Positions 12,215 through 28,510 of a DNA stretch of 32,000 nucleotides are shown here, piece by piece. Position numbers and translations under genes: made by a program. Positions within the stretch are counted from its first letter, which is position 1. Every line of letters begins with the position of its first letter. The stretch lies in contig CP113000.1 of the NCBI GenBank assembly GCA_026625185.1, forward strand, positions 1,245,622 to 1,277,621, read 5' to 3'. Origin of the DNA: Thermodesulfobacteriota bacterium. GTDB lineage: Bacteria; Desulfobacterota; WTBG01; JAGOGO01. The notes under the pieces are model-generated. The model saw nothing but the letters and a program-made list of their open reading frames with translations. It was not told where the DNA came from and did not search any database.

Positions 12215-12231
12215 GCAGGGTACCTTATAAT

Positions 12232-12314
<83 letters not shown>

Positions 12315-12371
12315 CATTCCTTCCTTTGAATTTCAATGTGTTACAACTCTTAAGGTGGTAAAAATCCTTTG

Positions 12372-24728: not shown

Positions 24729-25061
24729 TTAAATCTGTGACCGAGCAGATTCCACGGATTCAAAGATGGGGATAATAGAACGGAATCCGGAAATTTCGAA
24801 AACCTCCTTTACCATACCTTTAAGTCCGGCAATCAGAAGCTTTCCATCTTTTTCTTTAAGTTTTTTGGTTATCGTGAGGATGCTGCGAAGGCCGGAGCTG
24901 CTGATATAATCAAGCGCAGCAAAGTCAAGTATTAAAGCGTTATTTCCTTCAGCAATTAATGCGGCCATTTCTTTTTCAAACTCCGGTGAGGAAACAGCAT
25001 CCATCCTCCCTTTTAATGAAACCACTGCTGCCTCTTGTTCCCGTTTTTTTTCTATCTCCAT
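24729..25061 (-). CDS. STAS-domain anti-sigma-factor antagonist (RsbV/SpoIIAA-like)
   Basis: 110 aa: VSLKGRMDAVSSPEFEKEM...LDFAALDYISSSGLRSILTITKKLKEKDGKLLIAGLKGMVKEVFEISGF. The serine at the phospho-acceptor position is retained. Confidence 0.88.
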   Translation of the reverse strand: MEIEKKREQEAAVVSLKGRMDAVSSPEFEKEMAALIAEGNNALILDFAALDYISSSGLRSILTITKKLKEKDGKLLIAGLKGMVKEVFEISGFRSIIPIFESVESARSQI

Positions 25062-25160
25062 AATAGGCTTTCTAATTTAATGTGATTAGCGTTTTTTCGG
25101 AATTTATGCTGCTTTTTTATTTCTTGGTAACGATCCAAAAAATTCTTTTTTTGTCGATAT

Positions 25161-25189
25161 TTTTTTAACCTATTGGCGCGGGAAAGTCA
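25161..25189 (-). promoter_or_regulatory. candidate sigma70 promoter for the STAS-SBP-phosphatase-kinase operon
   Basis: On the minus strand: TTGACT (25189-25184), a 17-nt spacer, then TAAAAA (25166-25161), about 100 nt upstream of ATG 25061. Confidence 0.3.
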
Positions 25190-25199
25190 ATCCTATTGA

Positions 25200-25285
25200 T
25201 TTTCCTTATTAACCGAAACCCATAAGCGGAGTCCCTCCCAGGTCTTCTTTTCATTGGGTGTTTTTTCAAAAAGTCCTTTCTTCCC
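25200..25285 (+). repeat. intergenic repeat family, copy 1
   Basis: TTATTAAC (25205-25212), 12 nt, GCGGAGTCCCTCCCAGGTC (25225-25243), then TTTTTTCAAAAAGTCCT (to about 25276). It is collinear with copies 2 and 3. Confidence 0.6.
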
Positions 25286-25326
25286 TTAATGGTTATTCCT
25301 ATCATCCTTTCGTCTAATTTTAATTC

Positions 25327-25425
25327 CCCCTAATCACTCCATCACTAACCACTAATCCCTGCGCCTTCAGGGCGCACGCAATCCCTTCGGCCCTGCCAGG
25401 CCGGAGTGAGGAAGTGATAAAGGGG
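25327..25425. ncRNA. candidate structured RNA or element (GC-rich, three-way-junction-like); identity and strand unknown
   Basis: Outer stem ATCACTCCATCACT (25333-25346) pairs with AGTGAGGAAGTGAT (25405-25418) at 12 of 14 positions. It is flanked by CCCC/GGGG and encloses hairpins TGCGCC-TTCAG-GGCGCA (25360-25376) and CGGCC-CTGCCA-GGCCG (25388-25403). Confidence 0.25.
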
Positions 25426-25590
25426 AAAAGGGGTCAGAAGAAAAGTTTTACGAATTTTTCTTCCGCAGTTTTCCAATTATTGTATTAATCATCTTCAATA
25501 TCTCGTTGCTTACACCATTTCTTTCAGCAAATGTTTTCGATGAGATAAAATTTATATCTTTACATTTTCCCAGCCAATTTTGAACTTCAG

Positions 25591-26098
25591 GTGTTGATCG
25601 GTAGTTACTCACTTATAGAGTTTGATTTTGGCACAAAAACTATTGATGCCATAAGCCAATGGTTGCCAGGTTCGCCCCCGCTTTTTTTTGTTAATAAAAA
25701 TTCTCCTATGGATCGTTTACGATTTAGCGTTGACCATGAGTTAGGTCATATTGTAATGCATAAAGTTTGTGGGCTGGATATAAAAAAAAATGGGAAAACA
25801 AGCAGACGATTTCGCTTAAGAAATTCTTATGCCCGAAGACGCTATATCTCGTTTCTTAAATAATATTACCCTTCCGCAACTTGCTAATTTAAAATCATAT
25901 TGGAAAGTATTCATGGCAGCTCTTTTGCATCGTTCATATGATCTAAAAAAAATTACAACAAGGCAATATCAATACTTATGGATGCAAATGGGGAAAGCTG
26001 GCTATCGAACAAAGGAACCGCCTGAATTTGATATTCCCAAAGAAATACCTTCTTTATTAAAAGATCTAATTGAAACTTATCGCCAAAAATATGTTTGA
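25591..26098 (+). pseudogene. ImmA/IrrE-family zinc metallopeptidase (DUF955), N-terminally truncated, frameshifted, with an internal stop
   Basis: Contains RFSVDHELGHIVMH (the HExxH motif). The frame changes at an A9 run (25782-25790). The shifted frame reads MGKQADDFA-TAA(25817-25819)-EILMPEDAISRF, matching the family's ANxFAxxxLMP segment. The remainder continues as track ORF 25829-26098. Confidence 0.65.
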
Positions 26099-27227: not shown

Positions 27228-27340
27228 TTTTCTTTAATAACCATATCCACCTAAGCGGAGTCCCCCTCAGGTCGGAAAATTCTCCCAAGCAATCACTTGG
27301 AAAAAAATTCTTATTAAGAACCAAAAAGTCCTATCTTGGT
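27228..27340 (+). repeat. intergenic repeat family, copy 2
   Basis: TTAATAAC (27234-27241), 13 nt, GCGGAGTCCCCCTCAGGTCGG (27255-27275), TTCTCCCAA, AAAAAAATTCTT, CAAAAAGTCCTATCTT (to about 27337). Confidence 0.6.
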
Positions 27341-27383
27341 CTTATAAATTGAAGGCTAATTTTTTAACCTCTCTCCTCCCAAA

Positions 27384-27420
27384 AAGGCCAGGTTTTCATT
27401 GCGTGGCCTTTGTTTTTTTG
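27384..27420. terminator. bidirectional rho-independent terminator-like hairpin
   Basis: AAGGCCA (27384-27390) / TGGCCTT (27404-27410), a perfect 7-bp stem with a 13-nt loop. An A-run lies upstream (CCCAAAAA) and TTTGTTTTTTT downstream. Confidence 0.5.
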
Positions 27421-27488
27421 GGGTGAGAGAAAGCAAAACTTATTTTAAAAATACTTTACTATTACCTTTTCGTGGTTATTATTAAAAA

Positions 27489-27556
27489 ATGGCCCTGATC
27501 AGGCTCCTTTTCCTTCATCTCTCCTCCTTTTGAAGGGCCTGATCGTTTAGGGCCAT
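27489..27556. repeat. long imperfect inverted repeat (68-nt extended hairpin)
   Basis: ATGGCCCTGATCAGGC (27489-27504) pairs with GCCTGATC-gttt-AGGGCCAT (27537-27556). An inner stem is CCTTCA (27512-27517) / TGAAGG (27531-27536). Confidence 0.55.
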
Positions 27557-27909
27557 TCGCTTTTCTTAGCATAAATATGAGGACAAAACAAGTCATTATT
27601 ATATCCTCCTAAATTTCCAACTGCCTAAATTTCTTTATTTCTCTGCTCATTTTTAAGTACGGTTAATTCAAAAATAACATTCTCCACCAAGGGAGAGGAA
27701 CGATAAAAAAGTGTTATTAATTAAAAATTTACCTTTTTTCTAAGGCTTTTGTTCACTGGTAGTTTTTTTAAAGCTTATTTTTTCGTAAACCATTTTAGCG
27801 CTCCTGCGTCTTATATTTGAGAAAAGCAAAATAAATTAACCCATAAGAGATGCGTATCTGTACCTATTAAAAACTAATCCTCTAATAATTAAAAAAGGGT
27901 GTGATCATC

Positions 27910-28387: not shown

Positions 28388-28510
28388 TTTTCTTATTAAC
28401 TTATACGCCTGAGCGGAGTCACTCTCGGGTCGGTTTTTCTCCAACAAGTTTTTTCAGAAAAGAATTCTTTTTTTAAATAGAATAGTACTTGCGATAAAAA
28501 AGATCCTCTA
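28388..28510 (+). repeat. intergenic repeat family, copy 3
   Basis: TTATTAAC (28393-28400), 12 nt, GCGGAGTCACTCTCGGGTCGG (28413-28433), TTCTCCAAC, AAAAGAATTCTT, AAAAAAGATCCTCT (to about 28508). Confidence 0.6.

Follow-up and report, generated by a model that had tools for sequence, protein, structure and literature searches.

A GC-rich folded island beside a truncated PF05635 gene in a Thermodesulfobacteriota genome, and its probable relation to four-helix-bundle cassettes with heptad arms

In an AT-rich spacer of a Thermodesulfobacteriota genome (assembly GCA_026625185.1, contig CP113000.1), a segment of about 100 nt stands out by its GC content and its capacity to fold, and the question raised by this locus is what kind of element the segment is, or once was. 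An initial annotation, made from the sequence without database searches, considered it as a candidate ncRNA or as a recombination or recognition structure left behind by a mobile element. The segment (25327-25425, hereafter the island) was analysed here within the window, i.e. the whole stretch of 32,000 nt to which all coordinates refer unless a locus is named.

Fold and gene neighbourhood of the island

The structural description given by the initial annotation proved accurate. On direct reading of the sequence, the outer stem 25333-25346 (ATCACTCCATCACT) x 25405-25418 (AGTGAGGAAGTGAT) is paired at 12 of 14 positions, the mismatches being 25339/25412 and 25341/25410, and it is lengthened by CCCCC (25326-25330) against GGGG (25422-25425), so that the CCCC/GGGG extension previously noted holds. 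The two GC hairpins enclosed by this stem (A and B) were recovered by sequence reading and in the minimum free energy (MFE) structures of both strands, and the three-way-junction fold is the ViennaRNA MFE on both strands of 25320-25470. Folding of this segment gave -54.5 kcal/mol (z -4.30) for the plus strand and -62.6 kcal/mol (z -4.17) for the minus strand; z-scores were set against 200 dinucleotide shuffles, none of which (0/200) folded as well on either strand. The fold of the island is a real feature, beyond chance. The sharp shift in composition was also found, with a GC content of 0.60 in 25327-25425 against 0.34 and 0.33 in the flanking spacer, and of 0.72 in the interior (25355-25404), as was the position of the island between a short repeat (25225-25244, "repeat copy 1") and an ImmA/Peptidase_M78 pseudogene (25591-26098). 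The features of the locus are the following:

25326-25359, minus strand: purine-type heptad arm, reading GGGATTAGTGGTTAGTGATGGAGTGATTAGGGGG on the minus strand (GGGATTA-GTGGTTA-GTGATGG-AGTGATT-AGGGGG)
25360-25376, minus strand: GC hairpin A, TGCGCC-CTGAA-GGCGCA on the minus strand (plus strand: TGCGCC-TTCAG-GGCGCA), directly 5' of the purine arm
25377-25388, minus strand: linker GAAGGGATTGCG, a 12-mer that recurs unchanged as the 3' part of a genuine CRISPR repeat adjoining 4HB modules at the L054-L061 loci
25388-25403, minus strand: GC hairpin B, CGGCC-TGGCAG-GGCCG on the minus strand (plus strand: CGGCC-CTGCCA-GGCCG), present in the MFE of both strands
25404-25425, minus strand: pyrimidine-type heptad arm, reading CCCCTTTATCACTTCCTCACTC on the minus strand (CCCCTTT-ATCACTT-CCTCACT-CC)
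25437-25463, minus strand: AT-rich hairpin, comprising the last codons of the 4HB fragment (AAG AAA AAT TCG), its stop codon and the T-rich tract after it
25448-25612, minus strand: PF05635 four-helix-bundle (4HB, S23p/Avd-like) pseudogene fragment, a 54-codon ORF carrying the C-terminal ~47 residues
25591-26098, plus strand: frameshifted ImmA/IrrE (Peptidase_M78) pseudogene, PF06114 with E 2.9e-5 on the first of two consecutive ORFs

The outer stem is built of repeats of about 7 nt, TCACTNN in one arm and NNAGTGA in the other, a regularity missed in the initial annotation. These AGTGANN arms hold only 2-4 units each, and clusters of TCACT/AGTGA occur in the 32-kb window only at the two arms of the island. 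No second copy of the island was found in the 32-kb window, and no direct repeat (target-site duplication) was seen at the arm ends on reading of the sequence.

The AT-rich hairpin said to follow the island is present as described (GAAGAAAA at 25437-25444, an 11-nt loop, and TTTTCTTC at 25456-25463); it had escaped notice that the end of a truncated PF05635 ORF on the minus strand, i.e. its final codons and stop, lies within this hairpin. This 54-codon ORF, likewise overlooked, ends 22 nt from the island, the pyrimidine arm being the first element downstream of its stop codon. It matched the Pfam family PF05635 ("23S rRNA intervening sequence protein") with an E-value of 5.3e-4 over profile positions 67-105 of 106, and a custom HMM built on 35 homologues with an E-value of 4e-10 over positions 74-120 of 121. 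About the C-terminal 40% of the protein is left: ~73 residues are lacking at the N-terminus, as is the 5' arm that belonged to the gene. As no further 4HB piece was detected by the custom HMM in 25000-25900, the ORF was considered as a 5'-truncated 4HB pseudogene. It shares 32-40% identity (BLASTP) with the proteins of the L028 group, presented below. No N-terminal 4HB remnant was found after the purine arm using tblastn and the custom HMM; an 8-residue match on the plus strand (WLFLSSFR) was rejected as such a remnant, being at chance level. With the 54-aa fragment as query, the genome contigs yielded one false match (an SGNH hydrolase in L008) and the search for homologous proteins returned zero candidates.

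The truncated 5' end of the 4HB fragment is abutted by the ImmA pseudogene; together, they constitute a patch of decayed mobile DNA. Following the minus strand, one meets pyrF, the ImmA pseudogene (itself on the plus strand), the 54-codon ORF, the AT hairpin, the island, the repeat at 25225-25244 and the STAS-NMT1-SpoIIE operon; the distance from the island to the STAS start codon, which lies downstream on this strand, is 265 nt. The split of ImmA, which is identical in all same-species contigs, is accompanied by an A-run (25783-25790) just upstream of the overlap of its two ORFs, and the usual upstream HTH partner of ImmA is missing, the 4HB fragment standing in its place.

Other features of the window were recorded on the way. 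The repeat AGCGGAGTCNCYCYCRGGTC, whose copy at 25225-25244 is the "repeat copy 1" mentioned above, occurs three times on the plus strand (25225-25244, 27254-27273 and 28412-28431; 0.05 copies expected by chance), in three consecutive intergenic spacers, with a conserved block extending ~25 nt upstream (CTTATTAAC-N9-). The motif was absent from IMG/VR and from the related contig L009; a weak -35/-10 pair might be seen in its minus strand, but copy 3 is without a downstream gene. In the long spacer upstream of pyrF, the region 27360-27570 is strongly structured (plus strand z -6.2, minus strand z -5.4): 27370-27430 comprises a GC hairpin with A- and T-tracts and with a pyrimidine-rich and a purine-rich arm at its sides and looks like a bidirectional terminator, and 27488-27556 is a long GC hairpin with a pyrimidine-rich loop. 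Finally, a tRNA-Leu(GAG) was predicted by ARAGORN at 12231-12315, where the Rfam scan of the whole window at gathering thresholds gave no tRNA match.

Searches for known families and for related loci

The statement that the island belongs to no Rfam family was correct: nothing was obtained at gathering thresholds for the whole window, and nothing credible at E ≤ 10 for 24900-25800, where only chance-level matches were returned. Neither the whole window (gathering thresholds) nor the surroundings of the island (E ≤ 10) matched an rRNA model of Rfam. No tRNA or tmRNA was predicted in the island by ARAGORN, with default thresholds or with thresholds lowered to 70%, and the Rfam tRNA model was negative. 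A consensus scan called no promoter-like or terminator-like site at the island, and neither the GC hairpins (on either strand) nor the AT hairpin are followed by a U-tract. Comparison of the island by blastn with plasmids, phages and E. coli genomes yielded nothing or chance-level matches, with no match in the E. coli genomes, rRNA included. The GC-rich interior had no homologue in these blastn searches or in a scan of viral sequences with hairpin A, which gave 11 chance matches. A viral contig of IMG/VR (L016, 3720-3900) does carry a GC-rich island in an AT-rich spacer, with an identical 17-nt hairpin (TGCGCCCTGAAGGCGCA) and a fold z of -3.0; beyond these 17 nt it has no similarity to the window.

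As a finding that would speak against its reading, the initial annotation had named a fragment of a GC-rich coding gene; the outcome was negative for the frames examined. Two reading frames are open across the island; neither had a Pfam match, and phmmer comparison of the plus-strand frame with 1.84 billion proteins returned only translated tandem-repeat artefacts (the plus frame was thus covered by Pfam and phmmer, the minus frame by Pfam).

Conservation was examined in contigs carrying the neighbouring genes. Five contigs of the same species (L001-L005) are 100% identical to the window over the 639-nt aligned spacer, so that covariation cannot be read from them. The closest relative with a different sequence, L009, has an NMT1 protein 85% identical to that of the window, together with SLT, RidA (on the opposite strand) and STAS. 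This contig has neither the island nor the 4HB fragment nor the ImmA pseudogene; its upstream spacer measures 186 nt, and conservation is limited to ~45 nt upstream of the STAS start codon. Since the L009 spacer is without the island, the latter is not a conserved leader of the operon; it occupies a variable patch of decayed mobile DNA. Between the two readings offered by the initial annotation, the stand-alone ncRNA therefore received no support, with no Rfam match at E ≤ 10 and no island in L009, and the leftover of a mobile element gained support, as a truncated PF05635 gene is the neighbour of the island and arms like those of the island are found around such genes elsewhere.

Heptad arms around four-helix-bundle genes at other loci

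A scan of metagenomes with an 18-mer of the purine arm (TTAGTGATGGAGTGATTA) returned 26 matches, most of which are due to chance, about the number estimated beforehand. Six of them lie inside long (NNAGTGA)n/(TCACTNN)n hairpins, so that the 18-mer recurs in heptad hairpins at six metagenome loci, L028 included. At L028 the order is tRNA-Pro, an ORF-less AGTGA...TCACT hairpin, tRNA-Arg, an AGTGA arm, a 121-aa PF05635 gene, a TCACT arm and tRNA-His. The same layout is found at L049, L052 and L062, whose 4HB proteins are 67-81% identical to that of L028; their arms differ in sequence and are still heptad-like and complementary. Purine-type arms are thus the kind that precede the start codon of 4HB genes, and intact 4HB genes at L028, L049, L052, L062 and the viral locus L102 have TCACT-type arms past their stop codon. 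On the strength of this likeness, the pyrimidine arm at 25404-25425 was interpreted as the putative 3' inverted-repeat arm of the truncated 4HB cassette. The window purine arm also has TAGTGGTTAGTG in common with the 5' arm of L102, and the arms of L102 and of the window share 12-13-mers.

Two further observations concern the tRNA loci. Throughout the tRNA-Pro/tRNA-Arg/4HB/tRNA-His operon (L028 1431-2212 and its equivalents in L049, L052 and L062), every inter-tRNA spacer is a heptad hairpin, and tRNA-Arg may be enclosed there by pairing of the TCACT arm before it with the AGTGA arm after it. At L026 (3270-3330), a fragment GGCAAGGTCGCGAGTTC upstream of tRNA-Asp resembles the T-arm region of the same tRNA-Asp gene and has an ORF-less AGTGA/TCACT hairpin on one side and a solitary TCACT arm on the other, possibly as the trace of a rearrangement at heptad arms.

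The arrangement of the island differs from that of a cassette: a cassette runs purine arm, ORF, pyrimidine arm, whereas the island runs pyrimidine arm, GC hairpins, purine arm. This tail-to-head order (3' arm, GC hairpins, 5' arm) is the one found between adjacent cassette modules elsewhere. The segment TCACT arm-tRNA-Arg-AGTGA arm of L028 and L049 folds like the island, with a heptad closing stem and a GC-rich structured core. A comparable junction is present at a CRISPR array downstream of cas1 and cas2 in the contigs L054-L061 (GC 0.54), where a 4HB gene 50% identical to that of L028 is accompanied by arms of AGTCAGG-type heptads and by ORF-less modules in tandem. In L054-L057 the hairpin CTCCGC-TTTCA-GCGGAG stands directly before the purine arm, the position held in the island by hairpin A, and on folding, the pyrimidine arm-GC hairpin(s)-purine arm segment of L057 adopts the same closing-stem architecture as the island. 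GC hairpins beside arms were seen only in L054-L057 and in the window, and not in most viral cassettes. In the L054-L061 contigs (e.g. L057 2200-3400), one module is preceded by a partial CRISPR repeat, and the number of modules varies among related contigs.

The 12-mer linker of the island, GAAGGGATTGCG, equals the 3' part of the genuine CRISPR repeat ATTGGAACGAAGACCTTATGAAGAAGGGATTGCGAC, which in L054-L061 stands immediately before the hairpin-plus-purine-arm; in the island and at the L057 junction alike, the 12-mer adjoins the 5' side of the hairpin next to the purine arm. In a post hoc comparison of 64 loci, the 12-mer was found only in the copies of the window locus and in the CRISPR repeats and module junctions of L054-L061. 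The match is suggestive, its significance being uncertain in a comparison made after the fact. There is no CRISPR array in the window and no cas gene within 6 kb, and the Rfam CRISPR-DR models gave nothing. As for tRNAs, local alignment of the island interior with the tRNA-His of L028 gave a z of 3.6 (p 0.003), a result obtained with one of four orthologues, the three other tRNA-His genes not being significant.

The association of arms with 4HB genes was quantified on 40 genes (37 of 47 IMG/VR 4HB loci that were retrieved, plus 3 metagenome loci). Arms were considered as present when the 110-nt flanks on the two sides of the gene had at least 5 reverse-complement 8-mers in common, which was the case for 27 of the 40 genes and for none of 144 control window pairs drawn from the same loci. 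The period of the arm repeat is 7 in most cases; the unit varies by locus (GAAGGCA, GGAACTA, GTAGTCT, GTTACAC, GGGAGTA, CGGCNTT, GGAGAGT, AGTGRNN) and the architecture is constant. Genes with arms were located in tRNA operons, next to a CRISPR array, within PglX-like genes and on viral contigs. In a set of 72 4HB proteins, those of the L028 group came nearest to the window fragment, and L102 and L115 were its nearest viral counterparts; these loci (the L028 group, L102 and L115) are the ones carrying AGTGA/AGTGG-TCACT arms. Arm type thus tracks protein lineage, which ties the arms of the window to its 4HB fragment. At most of the loci examined, whether in a tRNA operon, a CRISPR array, a PglX-like gene or a viral contig, 4HB genes are flanked by inverted heptamer arrays. 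In the literature searched, no link was found between PF05635 genes in general and heptamer inverted arms, heptamers being noted only for the Coxiella intervening sequence (IVS).

Some of these settings deserve mention for themselves. In three divergent viral contigs, L102 (about 560-1100), L115 and L103 (about 1100-1650), a PglX/type IIG methyltransferase-like coding gene harbours a 4HB cassette, at a site shared by all three (...YAVGCMFGRYSLD...(cassette)...DNVIPI.D.EY..DDI...RPIYWLFDSG...). The frame of the host gene stays open through the heptad arms, and in its layout the locus is reminiscent of an intervening sequence placed in a protein gene. Elsewhere (P0154, L064), 4HB genes are found tightly packed immediately upstream of fusA (EF-G) and within a CODH/ACS operon; heptad arms were undetectable around the L064 gene.

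Origin of the island and comparison with known systems

We consider that the island is probably a decayed IVS-like cassette, i.e. the tail-to-head junction of a PF05635 4HB gene bearing inverted arms of ~7-nt repeats. The elements of this reading that were observed are the fold, the PF05635 fragment, the heptad arms, the association of such arms with 4HB genes and the same topology at junctions elsewhere. Read on the minus strand, the locus comprises the 3' end of the dead 4HB gene, its putative pyrimidine (TCACT) 3' arm, a GC-rich two-hairpin junction of 50 nt and a purine (AGTGA) arm of the type found at the start of cassettes; as the two arms are complementary, they form the "closing stem" seen in the initial annotation. 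In intact elements the two kinds of arm pair with each other across the ORF, and in tandem arrays a 3' arm can pair with the next 5' arm, enclosing a tRNA or a CRISPR repeat plus hairpin. The remnant in the window would correspond to the tail-to-head pairing of a 3' arm with the following 5' arm, the two arms of the island presumably deriving from adjacent modules. Points against this reading are the absence of an N-terminal 4HB remnant after the purine arm, so that a second module would require a further deletion, the GC-rich interior, for which the searches gave no homologue, and the restriction of GC hairpins beside arms to L054-L057 and the window. If transcribed, RNA of the island region would, by analogy with the Coxiella IVS, be a plausible substrate of RNase III; the island itself is presumably without a function of its own today.

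Heptad hairpins without a 4HB gene do exist, so the arms could alternatively belong to an independent, ORF-less element. A stand-alone heptad palindrome of MITE/REP type would then lie by chance beside the 4HB fragment, with the arms as its own terminal inverted repeats and the GC hairpins as cargo. Such ORF-less AGTGA/TCACT hairpins make up 5 of the 6 metagenome loci (L026, L027, L031, L032 and L036), and TCACT-first hairpins are common in viral contigs, with all 29 of 29 such viral loci being free of a 4HB gene, as are these five, in the fetched DNA (~1-15 kb per locus); in one of them, L082, the interior is GC-richer, and Xanthomonas is reported to have 70-75 convergent pairs of GGGAATC heptamers (PMC4692102). 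The single copy in the 32-kb window and the lack of an obvious target-site duplication nevertheless speak against a MITE/REP-like element, as do the small or AT-rich loops of most stand-alone hairpins, which are unlike the two GC hairpins of the island, and the start of an arm only 22 nt past the stop codon of the 4HB fragment, given that the nearest relatives of the latter have this arm type too; we regard the chance neighbourhood as unlikely, if the most serious competitor. A somewhat less probable proposal, which is compatible with the cassette junction and would refine its origin, is that the GC-rich interior is a degraded CRISPR-repeat or tRNA relic between modules. It is suggested by the 12-mer, placed as in L054-L061 relative to the repeat ATTGGAACGAAGACCTTATGAAGAAGGGATTGCGAC, and by the alignment score with the L028 tRNA-His; the similarity to the CRISPR repeat however ends at the 12-mer, no repeat-spacer array or nearby cas gene accompanies it (in the window and within 6 kb, respectively), the Rfam CRISPR-DR models are negative, and the tRNA side is weakened by the negative ARAGORN (at 70%) and Rfam tRNA results and by the three orthologous tRNA-His genes that do not align significantly.

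The remaining explanations were judged improbable to different degrees. The strong and significant fold on both strands, 265 nt upstream of STAS and in its orientation, could suggest that the island is a structured ncRNA in its own right or regulates the STAS-NMT1-SpoIIE partner-switching operon in cis as its leader. The same operon in L009 does without the island in its 186-nt upstream spacer, however, and no Rfam family at E ≤ 10, promoter-like or terminator-like site, or homologue in plasmids, phages or E. coli was found; the stem moreover forms as well on one strand as on the other, which is what a DNA palindrome would do, and we hold this explanation to be improbable. It is very improbable that the locus is the remnant of a diversity-generating retroelement (DGR), in which the 4HB fragment would represent a dead avd and the island would be part of the TR/spacer RNA or of the post-VR hairpin: PF05635 proteins are indeed Avd homologues, and the bAvd family PF22296 is also matched by proteins of the L028 group, but no reverse transcriptase is present among the genes called within 6 kb, the repeat searches of the window gave no template/variable repeat pair, and the closest 4HB relatives sit in tRNA operons with no reverse transcriptase called in ~2.5 kb on each side. 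Scarcely any weight is left for an intrinsic terminator or a fragment of a GC-rich coding gene, for which the GC hairpins and the two open frames could be invoked, against the lack of a U-tract on either strand and of a terminator-like site and the negative results of Pfam (both frames) and phmmer (plus frame).

With the decayed cassette as the preferred origin of the island, a broader and more tentative proposal can be made, which we would put forward as possible rather than probable: PF05635 genes would form a widespread and largely undescribed class of mini-cassettes with locus-specific inverted arms of ~7-nt repeats, excised by RNase III, and the island would be a surviving processing module. 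Hosts of such mini-cassettes may be transcripts that are already processed (23S rRNA, tRNA operons, CRISPR arrays) and even protein genes (PglX-like). Pairing of the arms may lead to RNase III excision, and the alternative tail-to-head pairing may frame host RNA; the GC hairpins of the island may be a small RNA or recognition site that is still, or was recently, functional. The island itself is probably a fossil, of little import for the biology of this bacterium. The interest of the locus lies in a simple and testable rule, namely that about two thirds of the sampled S23p/Avd-like 4HB genes are flanked by inverted heptamer arrays, whatever the locus. This rule joins the IVS of 23S rRNA, the heptamer pairs of Xanthomonas and cyanobacteria and the orphan genes annotated as "four helix bundle protein"; it makes the nature and the movement of IVS elements directly approachable, and allows annotators to recognise such relics rather than call them candidate ncRNAs.

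Several known systems invite comparison. MITEs and long palindromic repeats (Correia, ERIC/IRU, BIME/REP) are imperfect palindromes of ~100 nt found in spacers and folding equally on both strands. The island is also an imperfect spacer palindrome of ~100 nt with an equal fold on both strands; it differs by its arms, which are heptad arrays and not unique terminal repeats, by the absence of a visible target-site duplication and by its single copy in 32 kb. With the avd gene of DGRs (bAvd of Bordetella phage BPP-1), the window element shares a homologous fold and family, whereas no reverse transcriptase among the genes called within 6 kb and no TR/VR pair accompany it, and its closest relatives lie outside DGRs. 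Heptanucleotide tandem repeats have been described in Xanthomonas (GGGAATC), in Nostoc (GGGGA(C/T)T, or STRR) and in Beggiatoaceae (TAACTGA) (PMC4692102, PMC4679880), and PF05635 genes are not mentioned in either of these papers. The window arms share with them the period of 7, the intergenic site and convergent arrays able to form stem-loops; they differ in their unit (AGTGANN), in the number of units (2-4 per arm) and in being tied to a 4HB remnant.

The closest parallel is the IVS of 23S rRNA, as in Leptospira and Coxiella burnetii, which has in common with the window element the PF05635/S23p family, inverted repeats forming a long stem and decay of the ORF. In Coxiella burnetii, the S23p ORF lies in the loop of a 28-bp stem of terminal inverted repeats and appears to be decaying, tandem GACAGAT heptamers stand just upstream of it, and the RNase III cut was mapped at the first heptamer, making this IVS the one case studied by experiment, with RNase III cutting in a heptamer-containing stem (PMC4990558). 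Tandem heptamers in an arm are thus common to the Coxiella IVS and the window element. The latter, in contrast, lies outside rRNA genes, and its ORF is reduced to the last ~47 codons. Its pairing joins a 3' arm to the following 5' arm around two GC hairpins instead of spanning the ORF, and the complementary 5'-type arm comes after the 3' arm rather than before the ORF; the 5' arm that belonged to the fragment has been deleted. An IVS with an S23p ORF and inverted termini was therefore already known, with heptamers noted once; what sets the instance described here apart is its location outside rRNA and its reduction to a junction that carries GC hairpins.
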